In this document: positions 1,525 to 17,610 of the stretch, piece by piece
Position numbering within the stretch: the first letter of the stretch is position 1
Layout of the letters: each line of letters starts with the position of its first letter
Source: Kofleriaceae bacterium
GTDB lineage: Bacteria > Myxococcota_A > Polyangia > Haliangiales > Haliangiaceae
Assembly (NCBI GenBank): GCA_048500355.1
Contig: JASNYD010000006.1
Coordinates: 480,211-544,210, forward strand
Direction of reading: 5' to 3'
DNA length: 64,000 nucleotides
Program-made: the position numbers and the translations under genes
The notes under the pieces: generated by a model
What the model was told of the DNA's origin: nothing
The model's input: only the letters and a program-made list of their open reading frames with translations
Database searches by the model: none

Positions 1525-9279
<7,755 letters not shown>

Positions 9280-9536
9280 GATCCCTCGTGGGGGCTCGAC
9301 CCCGCCGCCGGCACCTCCCCGTCGAGGTGCGGGCGCGGGTGAACCTCCCGGCCGATGCGCTCGCATCGTAACACCCGCCGCGCGCGGCCCGCGACGCGCC
9401 GCGGCCCAAAACGCGCGACGACCGCGTCCGCCGGTTGCGGGCGCGGTGACGCCTGGGGTAACGAGGGTCGATGGTCCCGCCGGTCGTGCCGGACGCTCTT
9501 CCGGACGCCCCGCACCCGGCGCCGGCGCAGCCGGTG

Positions 9537-10265
9537 ATGACGGTGCTGTTCGAGGACGACGAGCTGGTGGCGGTGGCCAAGCCACCGGGGCTCGCCGTCG
9601 TCCCCGAGCGCGGGGCCGACCCGGCCGGCTCGCTCCGCCACCGGCTCGAGGCCGCGCGCCGGGAGCCGCTGTGGGTGGCGCACCGCATCGACAAGGACAC
9701 CTCGGGGGTCGTGGTGCTGGCGCGGACGGCGGCCGCCCACCGCTGGCTCAACGACGCGTTCGCCGCCCGCCGGGTGCACAAGCGCTACGTCGCGTTCGCG
9801 GCCGGCGACCTGCCGGGGACGCGCACGGTCGACGTCCCGCTGGTCGAGGCCCGCCGCGGAAAGGCCCGACCGGCGGCGCCCGGGGAGCGCGGCAAGCCGT
9901 CCGTGACCCGGTTCGTCGCCACCGCGCGCTGGCGGCGCCCGCCCGGCGCATCTCCCGCCGACCCGGCGACCGCGGCGGTCACCTGCCTCGACGCCTTCCC
10001 CGAGACCGGCCGCCATCATCAGATTCGCGTCCACCTGCGCAGCCTGGAGGCCCCGATCGTGCTCGACCCGCTCTACGGCAAGCGGACCTTGCGCGGCATG
10101 CTGACCGGCGCGCCGTGCACCCGCCTCGCCCTGCACGCGGCGCGACTCGAGCTCACCCGCCCCGACGGCCGCCCGCTCGCGATCGAGGCGCCGCTGCCGC
10201 CCGATCTGGTCGCGCTCGCCGCCTGGCTCGACGCGACGTGGCGACGGCAACCCGAGGGCGCCTGA
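9537..10265 (+). CDS. RluA-family pseudouridine synthase
   Basis: Motifs HRIDKDTSGVVVLAR (catalytic Asp) and GRHHQIRVHL. Start taken at MTVLFEDDELVAVAKP (internal ATG of track ORF 9471..10265). Its stop TGA overlaps and couples to the next gene. Confidence 0.85.
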   Translation: MTVLFEDDELVAVAKPPGLAVVPERGADPAGSLRHRLEAARREPLWVAHRIDKDTSGVVVLARTAAAHRWLNDAFAARRVHKRYVAFAAGDLPGTRTVDVPLVEARRGKARPAAPGERGKPSVTRFVATARWRRPPGASPADPATAAVTCLDAFPETGRHHQIRVHLRSLEAPIVLDPLYGKRTLRGMLTGAPCTRLALHAARLELTRPDGRPLAIEAPLPPDLVALAAWLDATWRRQPEGA

Positions 10266-10267
10266 CG

Positions 10268-11212
10268 ATGCAGAGCTGGCTGCTCGAGCTGATCGTGTGC
10301 GGAGGCTGCGCCGGGCGCCTGGCCGTGGTCCCGGGCCGCGCGCCGCTGGTGGCGTGCCGGCGCTGCGGCGCGCGCTACCCGGTGCTCGGCGGCGTGCCGG
10401 TGGTGGTGCCCGACCCCGCCGGCTACCTCGCCGGCTACCGCGACGCGACGCTGGCGGCCCTGGCCGAGCGCGGCCGGGCGACGCGCGCCGCGGTGGCCGT
10501 CGTCGACGCCTTCGCCGGCGCGGCGCCGCGCACCGAGCCCCTGGCCTTCGGCGACGACTGGGTGGCGGCCGAGGTCGCGCCCGAGGTCCGGACCGCGGGC
10601 GGCGCCGCGACGCCGACGCCGGCGCCCGGTGACGACGCCGCGCGCGCCGCCTTCGCCCGCTTCCTGGACGCCGCCGGCGATCGCGCGGTCGATCGGGCCG
10701 TGCTCGCCGCGCTGCCGGCGCGGCCGCGCACGGTGGTGGAGGTCGGCGCCGGCGCCGGCGTCCTCGCCCGCCGCCTGGCCGCGGCCCCCGGCGTCGAGCG
10801 CCTCGTGGTCGCCGATCTGTCGCTGCGCGCCGCGCTGCGCGCGCCGGCGCGTCGCCCGGCCGCCGGCCGGCGCCGGCGCGCCGCGGTCGCCGCCGCCGTG
10901 CTCGACGCCGAGGCCCTGGCCCTGGCCCCGCGCTCGGTCGACGCCGTGGTCGCCGTCGAGATCGTCGATCTGCTGGCCGCGCCCGAGCGCCTCCTGCGCG
11001 CCGCCGCCCGCGCCCTGCGCCCGCGCGGTCGCCTGATCCTGGCCACGCCCGACCCGTCGCTGGGCACCGGCGACGACGCCCGCCTGCGGGCGCTGCTCGC
11101 CGCGGAGGGCTGGCGCGTGGTCGCCGACCGCGCCGGCTTGCCCTGGATCCGCGTCCACGGCCCCCGCCACGTCCAGGTCTACTTCGTCGACGTGCTCGCG
11201 GTCGTCCGCTGA
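10268..11212 (+). CDS. Trm112-like zinc-ribbon N-terminus fused to a class I SAM-dependent methyltransferase
   Basis: MQSWLLELIVCGGCAGRL...CRRCGARYPV (Trm112/DUF343-like) then VVEVGAGAGVLARRLA (SAM motif I). The ATG at 10268 follows the RluA stop (TGAcgATG). It ends convergently, overlapping the ATP-grasp gene by about 34 bp. Confidence 0.7.
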   Translation: MQSWLLELIVCGGCAGRLAVVPGRAPLVACRRCGARYPVLGGVPVVVPDPAGYLAGYRDATLAALAERGRATRAAVAVVDAFAGAAPRTEPLAFGDDWVAAEVAPEVRTAGGAATPTPAPGDDAARAAFARFLDAAGDRAVDRAVLAALPARPRTVVEVGAGAGVLARRLAAAPGVERLVVADLSLRAALRAPARRPAAGRRRRAAVAAAVLDAEALALAPRSVDAVVAVEIVDLLAAPERLLRAAARALRPRGRLILATPDPSLGTGDDARLRALLAAEGWRVVADRAGLPWIRVHGPRHVQVYFVDVLAVVR

Positions 11213-12336
11213 CGGCGGCGGGGCCGGGGCTTGACCGGCCGCGCCGGGCCGCGGGCCAGGGCCATGCGCGCGAGCTGCTCGATCGTCTCCTCGAACGTCC
11301 GGCCGCTCTTCTCGGCGCACAGCATGAAGCCGGTGCCCTCGGCCAGGTTGGGGTTGGGGTTGACCTCGAGCACGTAGGGCTCGCCGTCCTCCTCGATGCG
11401 GAGATCGACGCGGGCGTAGTCGCGGCACTCGGTGATCTTGTAGGCGGCGAGCGCCACCTCGCGGATGCGGTTGCCCAGCCGCCGCGGCAGCCCCTTGGCC
11501 GGGACCTGGACGTCGAGGGCGTAGAAGTCGGGCGACAGCGGATCCCACTTGGCCTCGTAGGTGAGGATCTTGGGGTTGAACTCGTCGCCCTCGCGCTCGT
11601 CGAACTCGAGCTCGAGCAGCGGCAGGACCTCGGGCGGATCGTTGCCGAGGATCGCGACGTGGATCTCGCGGCCCTCGATGAAGCGCTCGACCAGCGCCGA
11701 CTGCTGGTACTCGCGGAGCACGCGCTCGACCTGGACCTCGAGCTCGGCGTGCTCGTGGCAGACCGCGTCCCTGTGGATGCCGCCCGAGGCGTCCTCGCGG
11801 GCCGGCTTGACGATCACCGGGTACTGGACCTCGAGGTTCTTCGGCACCGGCAGCTCGCGCACCAGCGTGTACTCGGGCGTCGGCACGCCCTGCGACTCGA
11901 GCAGGACCTTGGTCCGGAACTTGCGCTGGCAGGTGAGCAGGCAGCCCGGGGTGGCGCCGGTGTACGGGACCTGGAGGAGCTCGTAGAGCCCGGCGACGTA
12001 GGCCTCCTGCACCGGCTTGTCGTTGAAGAACTCGACCAGGTTGAAGACGGCGTTGGGCTTGAACGTGCGCAGCGCGCCGAGCAGCTCGTCGAAGCTCTCG
12101 CTGATGTTGACGCCCTTGACCTTGTAGCCGCGCCCGCGCAGCGCGTCCATGATCGCGTCGAGCTCGTCGGCGTCGGTGCCGATGTCGGCCGCGGTCTCCG
12201 TCGGGTTCCACGGCAGGGGCTGCGGGTCCTTGAACTTCTCGTACGGATCCTCGCCCACCGAGTTCCAGAGCACGAGGATCCGCTCGCCGGAGCCGGACCT
12301 AGTTCTTCTTGCGGGTCGATTTCTTGCGGGCGGCAC
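11179..12336 (-). CDS. ATP-grasp amide ligase, D-alanine--D-alanine ligase (Ddl)-like family
   Basis: 385 aa. RILVLWNSVGED..., ...YPVIVKPAREDASGGI..., ...EGREIHVAILGN..., ...YVLEVNPNPNL... match the Ddl-type ATP-grasp fold. Its start overlaps the end of the upstream C39-like gene (12299..12336). Confidence 0.8.
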   Translation of the reverse strand: MPPARNRPARRTRSGSGERILVLWNSVGEDPYEKFKDPQPLPWNPTETAADIGTDADELDAIMDALRGRGYKVKGVNISESFDELLGALRTFKPNAVFNLVEFFNDKPVQEAYVAGLYELLQVPYTGATPGCLLTCQRKFRTKVLLESQGVPTPEYTLVRELPVPKNLEVQYPVIVKPAREDASGGIHRDAVCHEHAELEVQVERVLREYQQSALVERFIEGREIHVAILGNDPPEVLPLLELEFDEREGDEFNPKILTYEAKWDPLSPDFYALDVQVPAKGLPRRLGNRIREVALAAYKITECRDYARVDLRIEEDGEPYVLEVNPNPNLAEGTGFMLCAEKSGRTFEETIEQLARMALARGPARPVKPRPRRRQRTTASTSTK

Positions 12337-13255
12337 GGGGTTTCCTCCGTCGGCGCTTCTGATCGGACGCGTACAGGGGCTGGACGCCCTCGCGCGCGGC
12401 CGACCACAGGCTGAGCAGGATCGCCAGATCGGTCAAGGCGCGGCGCGTGGACGCCGCCGGGACCACCAGGCCGTAGGTGTCGGCCACGAACTCGAGGTTG
12501 CGCGCGACCCGCTTGACCTCGTCGCGCTCGACGGCCCCGTGCCAGTAGACGACGCGGTCGAGCAGGAGCTCGCCGTGCCGGCGCAGGAGCTCGCCCATCG
12601 ACAGCGCGCCGACGTGGAGCGGCGAGCGCGGCCGGCAGATCTCCATGAGGTCGGCCAGGTAGTCGTCCCAGCACGAGCCGAGGTCGCGGTGCTCGGGCCG
12701 GCGCAGGAAGCGGGCCCGCTGCACGGAGAACCGGGCGCGCAGGTCGCGGCGGAAGCGCGGTCGGACCGGGTGCAGGTCGTAGTAGACCGGCAGCTCGAGG
12801 GTGTGGGCGAGGCGCTTGCCGACCATGGCCCGGAGCTCGGCGAGCTGCTCGTGGTCCTCGTAGCGCCAGCGGGCCTCGAGCTCCTTCCAGGTGACGACCG
12901 CCACCACCGGCTCCTCGCGCGAGTCGAGGATCACGAACTTGCCGCTGGCGTGGTGGACCACGGTGATCCAGTGCTCCCACGCGTCGACGCACAGGAGCGT
13001 CGGGTAGCCCTCGGTGAGCTGCTTGACCAGCGCCTTGCGGGCCAGCCGCTCCTCGGTGGCCTCGATGAGCGGCATGTCGCAGGCGTGGGCGCGGGCGGCC
13101 CGCGCCAGCCGGACCTCGTCGGTCCCCGACCACCAGTGGGTGCGGGCCAGCTTCGTGAGCTGCGCGGGATCGGCGAGCACCCCCAGCACCGTCAGCGCGT
13201 GCTTGAGCGCGTACGGGCCGCAGGTGAAGTCGTTGGGCTGGCGATAGAGCCCCAC
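12299..13255 (-). CDS. Papain-fold C39-like peptidase / BtrH-like acyltransferase domain protein with a basic C-terminal tail
   Basis: The N-terminus YRQPNDFTCGPYALKHALTVLGV (Q-x5-C-G-P oxyanion/Cys motif) and EHWITVVHHASGKFVILDS (His ... Asp) match the catalytic triad layout of C39-like and BtrH-like papain-fold proteins. The C-terminus is KRRRRKPRAARKKSTRKKN. Confidence 0.7.
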   Translation of the reverse strand: MGLYRQPNDFTCGPYALKHALTVLGVLADPAQLTKLARTHWWSGTDEVRLARAARAHACDMPLIEATEERLARKALVKQLTEGYPTLLCVDAWEHWITVVHHASGKFVILDSREEPVVAVVTWKELEARWRYEDHEQLAELRAMVGKRLAHTLELPVYYDLHPVRPRFRRDLRARFSVQRARFLRRPEHRDLGSCWDDYLADLMEICRPRSPLHVGALSMGELLRRHGELLLDRVVYWHGAVERDEVKRVARNLEFVADTYGLVVPAASTRRALTDLAILLSLWSAAREGVQPLYASDQKRRRRKPRAARKKSTRKKN

Positions 13256-13273
13256 GTCCGCACCATAGCGGAA

Positions 13274-14854
13274 TCAGGCGCCGGCCGGGCGATCGCGGCC
13301 ACGTCGTTGGCGCCCGACGATCGCCGCGAGCGCGAGCGCGAGGCCGCCGGCCAGCGCGCCGCGCCCGCCTTCGCCGCCGCCGCCGTCGCAGCAGCCGCCG
13401 GGGCTCGCGCCCGGCTCGACCCCGCCGTCGCCGCTTCCGGCCGCGCCGTCGCCGCCGGGCCCGGCGTCGATCGCCACGCATCCGCCCGCGCAGTGCTCGA
13501 ACGCGCCCAGGTCGAGCGGTCCGTCGACCGGACGGGCGACGGCGGCGCGGTGGACGACGTACTGCTCGCTCACCGCCGGCACGCCGGCGGCCAGGGGGGC
13601 GCCGACGTCGCGGGCCATGGCGTCGGCGCGCAGGCGGAGATCGCCGCCGGCGACGTCGACGAAGCCGGGGTCGCTGCCCTCGAGCCGGCCGCCGAGATCG
13701 GTGATGGTGCCGGTGGCGCCGGCGAACGAGGTCGTGAACCCGGGCTTGATCCAGTTCCAGCCCCAGGCCACGTCGCCGTCCTGGGCCACCAGCTCGACGT
13801 TCCCGCCGGGCGCGGTGGCATGGAAGATGTTGCCGCGGACCTCGGCGCGCTCGCCCGGCGACGACAGGCGGAACAGGGTCGTGCGATCGGCGCGCGTCGA
13901 CACCACGGTGTTCTGGTAGAAGTGGAGCGTGCCCTGGCGGTAGGCCCCGAGGTTGCCGCTGTCGCCGCCGTAGTGGACGATCTGGCGGTTGCCCTCGCCG
14001 TCGCCCTCGACCAGGACGTTGCCGTAGACCAGCGTGGTGCGGTACGCGGGCAGGGTCGACAGCGTCGACGAGTCGACCAGATCGAGCTGGCGGTTGCCGT
14101 CCTCGATCCAGTTGTAGCGGACCACCAGCCCGGCCGAGCGGTCCTTGAGGTTGTTGCCGCTGGCGCCGGGCGCCAGCGGCCCGTACCAGTTGTACTGGAA
14201 GACGATGCCGCGGGCCTCGGTGTAGCTGTTGTGGACGTAGATGTCGCCGACCACGCCGTTGCCGTGGACGTGGTTGCCCTCGATCACCACGTCGCTGGCG
14301 GCGCTCGACACGAACAGGCCGTTGGCGGAGTCGCGCAGGACGCAGCCGCGGATCGTGACGTGGGCGCCGTTCTCGATGTGGATCGCGGCGGCGTTGCCGG
14401 CGTAGCGCTGGGTGGCGCCGGCGGCGTCGCGGAAGCCGTGGTCGGGGTGACCGCCGCGGACGTCGAGACCCTCGAGGACGACGTGGCTCGGGGCGTCGGC
14501 CGGCGCGTTCGAGCCGCCGACCTTGATCACGCTGCGGACCTGGTTCCAGTAGCTGAGCTGGGCGCGGGTGGTCGCGTCCTCGCCGTCGATCACCGGCAGC
14601 TCGCCGCCCGGCCCCGGCACCCCGCGCACCACCAGCGGCGCGGCGGCGGTGCCGCCGTTGCCGACGACGAACTTCGCCCGGTACGGCGTCGGTCGCCAGG
14701 CGATCTCGACCACGTCGCCGGCGCCCAGGCGCTCGAACGGCACCTCGCCGACCTCGGCCAGCGCCTGGCCGGGGCCGACACGATAGGTCTCGGCGGCGGC
14801 GGGCGCCGCGGTCAGCGCCGTCAGCGCCAGGACGATCGAGCCGCGCATTCGCAT
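13274..14854 (-). CDS. Secreted right-handed beta-helix (pectate-lyase-like) protein with a MYXO-CTERM-like tail
   Basis: Start at the internal ATG MRMRGSIVLALTALTAAPAAA (signal peptide). Repeated ...VIEGNHVHGNGVVGDIYV..., ...VRYNWIEDGNRQ..., ...GNVLVEGDGEGN... are parallel beta-helix repeats. The C-terminus is GGCCDGGGGEGG...ALAGGLALALAAIVGRQRRGRDR (Cys motif, TM, Arg cluster). Confidence 0.75.
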   Translation of the reverse strand: MRMRGSIVLALTALTAAPAAAETYRVGPGQALAEVGEVPFERLGAGDVVEIAWRPTPYRAKFVVGNGGTAAAPLVVRGVPGPGGELPVIDGEDATTRAQLSYWNQVRSVIKVGGSNAPADAPSHVVLEGLDVRGGHPDHGFRDAAGATQRYAGNAAAIHIENGAHVTIRGCVLRDSANGLFVSSAASDVVIEGNHVHGNGVVGDIYVHNSYTEARGIVFQYNWYGPLAPGASGNNLKDRSAGLVVRYNWIEDGNRQLDLVDSSTLSTLPAYRTTLVYGNVLVEGDGEGNRQIVHYGGDSGNLGAYRQGTLHFYQNTVVSTRADRTTLFRLSSPGERAEVRGNIFHATAPGGNVELVAQDGDVAWGWNWIKPGFTTSFAGATGTITDLGGRLEGSDPGFVDVAGGDLRLRADAMARDVGAPLAAGVPAVSEQYVVHRAAVARPVDGPLDLGAFEHCAGGCVAIDAGPGGDGAAGSGDGGVEPGASPGGCCDGGGGEGGRGALAGGLALALAAIVGRQRRGRDRPAGA

Positions 14855-14888
14855 GGGCCCGAGCCTAGCCCGGGCGGCCCGCGCCAGG

Positions 14889-15335
14889 TCAGGGCTCGTG
14901 CTTGTCGTCCGGCCCGTGGTCGTGATCGTGACCATGACCGTGGTCATGATCGTGGTCGCAGTCGGGCCCGTGCTCGTGCGCGTGGGCCGCGATCTCCTTC
15001 TTGACCTGCTCCATGTCGAGCTCGCGCGCCTTCTCGACGAGCTGGTCGAGGGCCGCCGCCGGCAGGGCGCCGCTCTCGCGGAACAGCAGCACGCCGTCGC
15101 GGAACAGCATCAGCGTGGGGATGGCCTGGATGCCCGCCGCCGCCGCCAGCTCCTCCTGGGCCTCGGTGTCGATCTTGCCGAAGACGACGTCGGCGTGCTT
15201 GGTCGACGCCGCCTCGAAGATGGGGGCGAACATGCGGCACGGGCCGCACCACTGGGCCCAGAAGTCGAGCAGGACGATGCCCTCCTTCTCGATGGTGGGC
15301 TGGAAGTTGTCCAGGTTGATCTCGACGGTAGCCAT
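14889..15335 (-). CDS. Thioredoxin with a His/Asp-rich metal-binding C-terminal tail
   Basis: WCGPC active site (LLDFWAQWCGPCRMFAP). The C-terminal tail is HAHEHGPDCDHDHDHGHGHDHDHGPDDKHEP. Confidence 0.9.
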   Translation of the reverse strand: MATVEINLDNFQPTIEKEGIVLLDFWAQWCGPCRMFAPIFEAASTKHADVVFGKIDTEAQEELAAAAGIQAIPTLMLFRDGVLLFRESGALPAAALDQLVEKARELDMEQVKKEIAAHAHEHGPDCDHDHDHGHGHDHDHGPDDKHEP

Positions 15336-16482: not shown

Positions 16483-17238
16483 TCAGGCGAGCGCGGCGTG
16501 GAGCAGGAGCGCGCCGGTGACCAGGAGCAGGCCGGCGACCGCGCCGCGGAAGGCGCGCTCGCTCACCCGGGCGTGGACCCGATCGCCCAGGAGCATGCCG
16601 ACCGCCATGGCCGGGACGAGCGTGAGCGAGGTGGTGAGCGAGTCGGCGTGGAGGTGGCCCCGCACGGCGAGCCGCGACAGCACGATGACGTTGAGGACCA
16701 GCCACATGACGGCCAGGGTGGCGCGCAGGGCCGCCTTGCTGGTCAGGTTGCGCGCGATCACGGCGACCGCGAGCGGGCCGCCGGTGGCGAAGAGGCCGTG
16801 GACCACGCCGGCGCCGAGGAGCAGGCCGCGCTGCGCCGCCGGCGGCAGGCTGGTCGGCGCGGCGGCCGCGCCCCGCGCGCGCACATGCGCGCCGAGCTCG
16901 AGGAGCGCGACCACGATCACCAGGCCGGCGAACAGCGCCCGCGCCCGCTCGGCGTCGACCACCCACGCCAGGGCGGTGCCGGCCGCGAGGCCGGCGAGGA
17001 TCATGGGCAGGATCGCGACGCCGAGCGCGCGCCAGGCGATGGCGCGGCGGCCGCGCAGGGCGAGGGCGACCGACAGCCCGAGGTTGAGCGGCAGGAACCA
17101 GGCGAGCAGCGCCTCGATGCCGAACCAGCGGGCGCCCAGCGAGAGGGCGAGCACGGTGCCGCCGAAGCCCGCGACGGCCTCGACGAAGGCGCCGGCGCCG
17201 AGGACGAGGGAGAGGAGGAGGAGGTCGTCGGTGGACAT
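16483..17238 (-). CDS. TauE/SafE (DUF81) family sulfite/anion exporter membrane protein
   Basis: 251 aa, all hydrophobic helices with Gly-rich motifs ([10 protein letters not shown] ... [11 protein letters not shown]) typical of TauE/SafE 4+4 TM proteins. Confidence 0.8.
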
Positions 17239-17249
17239 CGCGGGGTGTG

Positions 17250-17610
17250 GGGCTCGGGTCCGGGTTCGGAGTCGGGTTCGGAGTCGGGCTCGGGTTCGGA
17301 GTCGGGCTCGGGTTCGGAGTCGGGCTCGGGTTCGGGTTCGGGTTCGGGTTCGGAGTCGGGCTCGGAGTCGGGTTCGGGTTCGGGTTCGGAGTCGGGCTCG
17401 GGTTCGGTTTCGGGTTCGGTTTCGGGCTCGGGTTCGGGTTCGGGCTCGGGTTCGGGTTCGGTTTCGGGCTCGGGGTCGGTTTCGGGCTCGGGTCTGAATG
17501 ACCCGCTCACCCTGAGCGAAGCCCCGAAGGGGCGGAGTCGAAGGGGCTCGGGTTCGGTTTCGGGCTCGGGTTCGGGTTCGGGTTCGGGCTCGGGGTCGGG
17601 AGGTGGGTTC
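17250..17610. repeat. Hexanucleotide tandem repeat (GGGTTC/GGGCTC/GGAGTC/GGTTTC)n, about 55 units, interrupted by a roughly 50 bp unique hairpin-containing spacer
   Basis: Directly visible: ggctcgggtccgggttcggagtcgggttcggagtcgggctcgggttcgg... runs from just after the TauE start to about 17610. The spacer at about 17495-17545 (tgaatgacccgctcaccctgagcgaagccccgaaggggcggagtcgaagg) has two short inverted repeats (cgctca-ccc-tgagcg and cccc-gaa-gggg). It sits between the kinase 3' end and the TauE 5' end. Confidence 0.9.

Follow-up and report, generated by a model that had tools for sequence, protein, structure and literature searches.

In the glutathionylspermidine and trypanothione synthetase-amidases, a single protein combines two opposing activities that act on one conjugate, an amide ligase dependent on ATP and a thiol amidase of the papain clan; the latter is of the CHAP type, and the ligase belongs to a different ATP-grasp family from the one described here. 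To our knowledge, all ATP-grasp ligases form their amide bond via an acyl-phosphate. Bacterial operons have also been predicted in which an ATP-grasp peptide ligase adds a tag that is reversed by a papain-superfamily peptidase (PMC3495828). Here we analysed a 64,000-nucleotide stretch of a Kofleriaceae bacterium genome (contig JASNYD010000006.1; hereafter the window), in which the gene for a Ddl-like ATP-grasp ligase adjoins the gene for a standalone papain-fold protein. These two genes form a cytoplasmic module that is the true unit of the locus, rather than the four-gene cluster proposed in an initial annotation of the same DNA, and on balance they probably encode a coupled ligase and hydrolase acting in opposition on one peptide-like substrate. 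Full-text searches of the literature returned no description of this ligase/peptidase pair, in agreement with the initial annotation, which had not recognised a described system, and an earlier computational mention is possible.

The coding regions and domains of the pair are arranged in the window as follows:

12299-13255, minus strand: predicted papain-fold cysteine peptidase/amidase, standalone and two-domain, 318 amino acids, with sub-threshold C39-clan Pfam matches
12866-13255, minus strand: its N-terminal C39-like catalytic domain, residues ~1-130, with Gln6 (oxyanion hole), Cys12, His95 and Asp111
12362-12808, minus strand: its C-terminal helical domain, residues ~150-298, with a conserved W238-H239-G240 motif
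11179-12336, minus strand: predicted Ddl-like ATP-grasp amide ligase (PF07478), 385 amino acids, or 364 amino acids from GTG 12273
12273-12336, minus strand: junction of the two core genes, by sequence inspection

The junction depends on the start codon of the ligase gene. With GTG 12336 the two genes overlap, as first annotated, and the overlap is 38 nt; with GTG 12273, the start used by NCBI for the 364-amino-acid protein (P0121), they are separated by a gap of 25 nt. Overlaps or very short gaps between the core genes were also found in orthologous loci.

Conservation of the pair was assessed from both sides, and the linkage counts rest on hidden Markov model (HMM) and tblastn results. On the peptidase side, the 80 best genome loci of the family were compared; the relatives of the window belong to Kofleriaceae/Haliangiales within Myxococcota, and gene context followed the clades of the peptidase tree. 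In clade A, to which the window and orthologues 58-65% identical to it belong (12 loci), the ATP-grasp gene was always co-directional and directly downstream; in clade B it was directly upstream and divergent. It was divergent at 37 nt from the peptidase gene in a Gemmatimonadales locus, convergent with it in a locus on a 53% G+C contig, and 3 kb away in one distant locus, with three further distant loci having no ATP-grasp gene. On the ligase side, an ATP-grasp profile scan gave 80 metagenomic loci (G+C 28-73%), named by NCBI as Ignavibacteriaceae, Ignavibacteriales or Bacteroidota, and Gemmatimonadota. Enough flanking sequence was available for 64 of them; the peptidase gene, identified by its HMM, was directly divergent upstream at a distance of 53-183 nt in 39 and within 3 kb in 2 more. 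All named homologues were from metagenome-assembled genomes (MAGs), with no cultured host among them.

The pairing therefore recurs in Myxococcota, Gemmatimonadota and Ignavibacteriota/Bacteroidota, at G+C contents from 28% to 75%, and the adjacency persists through co-directional, divergent and convergent orientations across the three phyla. Because adjacency has outlasted these changes of orientation, the ATP-grasp and the papain-fold protein are functionally linked, and the linkage is ancient and cross-phylum, which upholds the original reading of the two genes as a ligase/thiol-peptidase pair. The 39 divergent pairs with their 53-183 nt spacers indicate that a divergent pair with a short shared control region is the ancestral layout; the co-directional, near-overlapping layout of the window is a derived, Kofleriaceae-type variant.

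The papain-fold protein is C39/BtrH-like by fold, as had been proposed, and its AF2 model has a pLDDT of 85. The catalytic motifs quoted in the initial annotation are real: Gln6, Cys12, His95 and Asp111 are invariant in 27 of 27 close homologues and in 45 of 45 cross-phylum homologues from three phyla, and given this invariant tetrad the protein is very probably active as an enzyme. Its catalytic Cys at residue 12 leaves no room for a signal peptide, which points to a cytoplasmic location. The helical C-terminal domain presumably recognises the substrate; no fold match was found for this domain of ~150 amino acids, and a PDB sequence search with the peptidase family profile gave no match at E<=10. 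In Pfam, only sub-threshold matches to C39-clan families were obtained (DUF3335, Peptidase_C39, C39_2, BtrH_N and DUF6885), with 15.1 bits against a cut-off of 22 for PF03412 and 18.4 bits against a cut-off of 25 for PF11814. Peptidase_C39_2 (PF13529) and BtrH_N (PF14399), the two families between which an HMM comparison had been suggested, both matched in the family-wide scan, in every case below threshold at E 4e-4 or weaker, with BtrH_N matching 11 of the 27 family members. NCBIfam gave no match for the peptidase, which, judged by these profile scores, fits no Pfam or NCBIfam family.

Public annotation of the peptidase family is sparse: nearly all the names seen were 'hypothetical protein', some Ignavibacteria members bear the NCBI label 'C39 domain-containing', and precomputed database annotation gives PF13529 for P0115 and weak or faint C39-family matches for the distant P0408. 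At least 658 close homologues were found, and the family profile search recovered 900 clusters at 50% identity among 1.84 billion representatives. The proteins are standalone, at 270-320 amino acids across the 900 clusters; those listed were mostly 260-300 amino acids long, and none of the best 150 was a larger fusion protein.

The ligase is a Ddl-type ATP-grasp enzyme by HMM comparison, scoring 112 bits against a cut-off of 24 for PF07478 (Dala_Dala_lig_C). Its nearest PDB sequences are VanA and Ddl (E 4e-21 with the single sequence, 5e-37 with the family profile), among solved structures its closest relatives are exclusively Ddl/Van ligases, with an L-amino-acid ligase next, and its RimK matches have E 0.005 or worse. 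NCBI and JGI annotate it as D-alanine--D-alanine ligase (P0121), a label shared by many clade members among the best 120 of 1861 homologues at E<=1e-3. The label and the Dala_Dala_lig_C score would suit an ordinary housekeeping D-Ala-D-Ala ligase lying by chance beside an unrelated protease. However, the ATP-grasp protein reaches only about half the cut-off of every NCBIfam Ddl model, the best scores being 126.9 bits for NF002378 (cut-off 243) and 123.2 bits for TIGR01205 (cut-off 245.65), and it is 25% identical to E. coli DdlB. In alignment with a DdlB sequence whose landmark residues agree with published numbers, the protein retains the residues for ATP/Mg binding and catalysis (K97, K144, E180, K215, R255, D257, E270 and N272 in DdlB numbering), whereas the D-Ala-contacting residues are replaced across the clade (H63N, S150A, Y216W, S281T/V and L282G/A) and position E15 is occupied by D, E or N. 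The N-terminal domain contains distinctive 'LVLWN' and 'FNLVEFF' motifs, and the C-terminal tail is basic. No mur or fts genes were found near the ATP-grasp gene in the window or in any locus examined, and the same pairing occurs in three phyla. HMM cut-offs, active-site residues and gene context thus rule against a housekeeping Ddl, an extremely improbable reading that the initial annotation had itself named as part of what would refute its proposal.

The low Ddl scores, the replaced D-Ala contacts and the lack of mur/fts context suggest instead that the protein is an active Ddl-lineage amide ligase whose substrate is not the D-Ala pair. The initial suggestion of a D-Ala-like substrate found neither support nor refutation, although the DdlB residues that contact D-Ala are replaced. 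As the ligase requires ATP, it would work in the cytoplasm. Both core proteins of the window have polybasic Arg/Lys tails, at 12299-12361 for the peptidase and 11179-11250 for the ATP-grasp, which is also Arg/Lys-rich at residues 1-19; such tails are present in the Kofleriaceae orthologues and not in those of Ignavibacteria or Gemmatimonadota.

In the antagonistic module that we consider probable, the ATP-grasp enzyme, from a diverged Ddl branch, would convert a carboxylate into an acyl-phosphate at the expense of ATP and couple it to an amine, yielding an amide (peptide-type) bond in a substrate other than D-Ala/D-Ala. The peptidase would hydrolyse the same bond, or trim the ligase product, via a thioester on Cys12, and the synthetase/amidase pair would control how much of a peptide-like adduct is present, whether that adduct is a small amino-acid conjugate or a residue attached at a peptide or protein terminus. 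The catalytic centres of both enzymes are intact; the chemistry, the antagonism of the enzymes and the identity of the substrate are what we infer. A further gene bears on the substrate: in 13 low-G+C Ignavibacteria-type loci, the peptidase gene is followed, on its own strand, by a gene for an isochorismatase-family hydrolase (PF00857), for example:

363-929 of locus L169 (L153-L170 group), same strand as the peptidase gene: isochorismatase-family hydrolase, PF00857

C39-type domains usually act on peptides or proteins, and Ddl-type ligases on single amino acids. The Ddl ancestry of the ligase and this amidohydrolase neighbour hint at a small amide substrate, while the C39 fold and the extra helical domain of the peptidase hint at a peptide or protein.

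Several observations weigh against a pair of opposing enzymes. These two hints at substrate size pull apart. Clade C, the largest peptidase clade in Kofleriaceae (58 of the 80 genome loci), has no ATP-grasp gene within 6 kb, and 23 of the 64 assessable ATP-grasp loci are without the peptidase. Furthermore, CtaG and BtrH, papain-fold enzymes of the C39/BtrH clan, act as transacylases and not as hydrolases (PMC7183216), and in such a role the pair would be sequential rather than antagonistic.

The last point leads to a biosynthetic reading of the CtaD/CtaG or BtrJ/BtrH type, in which amide formation by the ATP-grasp would take place on a carrier, the acyl group then being transferred by the papain-fold protein, as a transacylase, towards a natural product. 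The sub-threshold BtrH_N matches would be consistent with this role, as would the catalytic Cys of CtaG, which is also near the N-terminus (C11) of a protein of similar length (PMC7183216). The neighbours of the pair nevertheless vary by locus, with no conserved peptidyl or acyl carrier protein (PCP/ACP), decarboxylase or other biosynthetic gene; no PCP/ACP was present among the called genes of four loci (L001, L085, L086 and L089) or among the recurring neighbour families, open reading frames (ORFs) below 70-80 amino acids not being called. The wide and mostly vertical distribution of the pair also resembles core physiology more than a secondary-metabolite cluster. In addition, one monophyletic ATP-grasp subclade lacks the cysteine peptidase, and there a Peptidase_Mx gene (PF15887; 32.1 bits against a cut-off of 27), encoding an HExxH zinc metallopeptidase, lies directly downstream of the ligase gene in four loci (L101, L102, L120 and L122). 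The swap of one hydrolase for a non-homologous one speaks for a dependence of the ligase on a hydrolytic partner; it favours hydrolysis over acyl transfer as the role of that partner, since a zinc metallopeptidase does not suit thiol-based acyl transfer. We therefore regard the biosynthetic reading as improbable.

The same metallopeptidase, as an alternative partner, would also be compatible with reversible protein tagging. A specific protein would then gain one or more residues, at its C-terminus or on a side chain, through the ligase and lose them again through the C39-like peptidase, in a bacterial parallel to RimK-type tailing or the tubulin TTL/vasohibin cycle. The additional helical domain, itself conserved, could act in protein recognition, and operons of an ATP-grasp with a thiol peptidase have been predicted to be peptide-tagging systems (PMC3495828). 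On the other hand, the ligase falls in the Ddl branch, in which the characterised enzymes take small substrates, and not in the RimK/TTL branch, as its weak RimK matches indicate; nor is there a conserved third gene beside the pair that could encode the target. Protein tagging in this broad sense is unlikely, albeit the alternative we take most seriously. A specific form of it is a multi-phylum system of reversible post-translational tailing: one particular cytoplasmic protein would receive an amino acid or short tail at its terminus from the Ddl-derived ligase, and the C39-like enzyme, recognising this target by its helical domain, would clip the addition off. This is an unlikely proposal that, if true, would provide a bacterial analogue of the tubulin tyrosination/detyrosination cycle assembled from different enzyme families.

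Peptidase genes of clades C and D have contexts of their own. Several genomes hold a clade A or B copy together with a clade C or D copy, and these co-resident copies are therefore paralogues. Clade C loci (L014-L083; e.g., L030 4574-6909) contain a SulP permease gene (-), a UPF0047/YjbQ gene (+), genes for a 249-amino-acid protein (+) and a 131-amino-acid protein (+), the peptidase gene (+), and then genes for a beta-lactamase-fold protein (-) and a Ser/Thr kinase (+); the 249- and 131-amino-acid proteins had no Pfam match. In clade D (L070 3527-6861 and L081 3527-6864), genes for a 487-amino-acid protein and an AstE/AspA-type deacylase (PF24827) precede the peptidase gene, co-directional and nearly gapless. 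As a possible hidden ATP-grasp, the 487-amino-acid protein gave nothing in Pfam or the PDB and a faint RimK/MptN-like match in NCBIfam (E 0.025), and hhalign against the ATP-grasp profile returned a probability of 0.3%. With clade D, this peptidase family may have another type of ligase/hydrolase context.

Additional ligase genes were observed at some loci. In a clade B locus (L085), the 3' end of the Ddl-like ATP-grasp gene is overlapped by another ATP-grasp gene (7590-8414), of the RimK/glutathione-synthetase-like kind. In two related genomes (L007 1745-3217 and L009 4319-5800), a gene for a circularly permuted ATP-grasp of type 2 (PF14403) is found immediately upstream of the pair, on the other strand; this is the ligase type of the predicted alpha-E/TGL tagging system, and its presence near the pair is probably a coincidence. 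Two ligase-side loci (L150 and L165) contain two tandem Ddl-like ATP-grasp genes followed by a GNAT acetyltransferase gene, with no peptidase gene nearby. In Ignavibacteria-type loci, an operon for a TonB-dependent receptor, DUF6580 and HAD proteins is convergent to the ATP-grasp gene; cobalamin riboswitches lie upstream of this operon (L148 8160-8306 and L153 8595-8784, minus strand) and are apparently unrelated to the pair.

Two further genes precede the pair in the window and complete the group that had been described as one cluster:

14889-15335, minus strand: thioredoxin with a His/Asp-rich C-terminal tail, TIGR01068
13274-14854, minus strand: secreted right-handed beta-helix protein, 526 amino acids, PF13229

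All four co-directional minus-strand ORFs are real genes at the positions first given: they have a strong coding signal (GC3 0.95-0.97), and identical contigs in public assemblies carry the same gene calls, including an exact match to the papain-fold protein. The gaps of 34 nt between the thioredoxin and beta-helix genes and of 18 nt between the beta-helix and papain-fold genes likewise stand. The thioredoxin scores 104.6 bits for TIGR01068, above the cut-off of 96.8, has the WCGPC active site and bears the His-rich tail that had been noted. For the other neighbour, the beta-helix assignment was retained, PF13229 being its only Pfam match, whereas the proposed MYXO-CTERM tail was not: by eye, the tail is Gly/Cys-rich with a GGCC motif, then a hydrophobic stretch and a basic RQRRGR, yet NCBIfam, including MYXO-CTERM, gave no match at E<=10 for either the 64-amino-acid tail or the whole protein.

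The tight co-directional spacing, with no terminator-like site found between the genes, might suggest a four-gene operon whose ligase and peptidase, helped by the thioredoxin, modify the cell wall or the beta-helix protein exported next to them. Comparative data largely refute this reading. The thioredoxin and beta-helix genes adjoin the pair solely in same-species contigs (L001, L002 and L004, the last an uncultured 'delta proteobacterium' MAG PRO4 contig encoding proteins 97-99% identical to those of the window by tblastn). In orthologous loci of 80% (L171) and 75% (L172) identity the pair is kept and the upstream genes differ, and no thioredoxin or beta-helix gene was found near the pair in these two or in any other locus examined. 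Since this synteny is not kept beyond the same species, the four-gene cluster is rejected as a functional unit, and the thioredoxin and beta-helix genes are chance neighbours outside the conserved module. Neighbourhood conservation, proposed at the outset as a check, thus holds for the ligase and peptidase across phyla and fails for the other two genes, and with it falls the suggested link of the pair to a secreted protein or a thioredoxin. Action on an exported substrate is also disfavoured, as Cys12 leaves the peptidase no space for an export signal and the ligase needs cytoplasmic ATP; altogether the four-gene operon is very improbable. The claim of a single transcript was not confirmed, promoter and terminator scans having returned nothing and being uninformative at the G+C content of the window (~75%).

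Other scans of the locus were likewise negative. The Rfam scan of intergenic regions found no riboswitch or other RNA family in the window, and in 15 related loci it found no RNA tied to the pair, the sole riboswitches being the cobalamin elements of the neighbouring TonB-receptor operon. PADLOC anti-phage defence models matched none of the four proteins. The ATP-grasp gene is surrounded by the peptidase, methyltransferase and pseudouridine synthase genes; the last two form a divergent pair (9471-11212, plus strand) between the four-gene region and an ORF for a TPR-rich protein (1525-9585, minus strand; 2686 amino acids as an ORF and 2584 in the public record). On the other side, a tandem array of the hexamer GGGTTC (17250-17493; ~40 copies, 81-87% match) lies just past a TauE-family gene (16483-17238, minus strand), and its open frames read (Pro-Glu)n or (Gly-Ser)n.

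That the pair has stayed together in Myxococcota, Gemmatimonadota and Ignavibacteriota points to an amide-linked metabolite or protein modification common to them. As the two proteins are small and soluble, straightforward biochemistry could identify the substrate. The D-alanine--D-alanine ligase label on this ATP-grasp clade is very probably wrong, which matters for surveys of cell-wall and vancomycin-resistance genes. The peptidase family, with its 900 clusters, is of interest in itself, having no Pfam or NCBIfam model and including a domain without a recognised fold relative.

Compared with known systems, the ATP-grasp of the window has its closest solved relatives in the Ddl and VanA ligases, with which it shares the ATP/Mg and catalytic residues; it differs from them in its ~25% identity, its scores below every NCBIfam Ddl cut-off, its changed substrate-binding residues, its distinctive N-terminal domain and its position beside a peptidase gene instead of in a mur/fts cluster. 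The peptidase shares the papain fold and the Gln/Cys/His/Asp centre with peptidase C39 (PF03412). Unlike the C39 domains of PCAT transporters (ComA, PCAT1 and LahT) and the endoisopeptidase PeiR, it is standalone and predicted to be cytoplasmic, is neither fused nor adjacent to an ABC transporter, adds a helical domain of ~150 amino acids and scores below the thresholds of PF03412, PF13529, PF11814 and PF14399; no ABC transporter gene or gene for a precursor (Gly-Gly leader) peptide was conserved near it in the loci examined. It also falls below the BtrH_N threshold that defines its comparison with the BtrH/CtaG transacylases (PF14399). The thiotemplated systems CtaD/CtaG (closthioamide) and BtrJ/BtrH (butirosin) require PCP/ACP and decarboxylase genes; no such gene was found conserved among those called near the pair described here, whose ATP-grasp is Ddl-like and whose phyletic pattern looks vertical and not like that of a mobile cluster.

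With the ATP-grasp/TGL/alpha-E tagging operons and the eukaryotic TTL/detyrosinase cycle, the pair shares a concept. Those systems use circularly permuted or TTL-type ATP-grasps and TGL peptidases, whereas the window combines a Ddl-like ligase with a C39-like peptidase and has no alpha-E protein. Neither window protein matched the CHAP or GSP-synthetase-type Pfam families, and no homology to the glutathionylspermidine synthetase-amidases was detected beyond the superfamily level; the resemblance, an analogy in function only, would lie in the same logic as that proposed for the window pair. The pair would thus work like known synthetase/amidase systems while drawing on two enzyme families that are both undescribed, which makes this widely conserved system a lead for enzyme discovery rather than a new principle.

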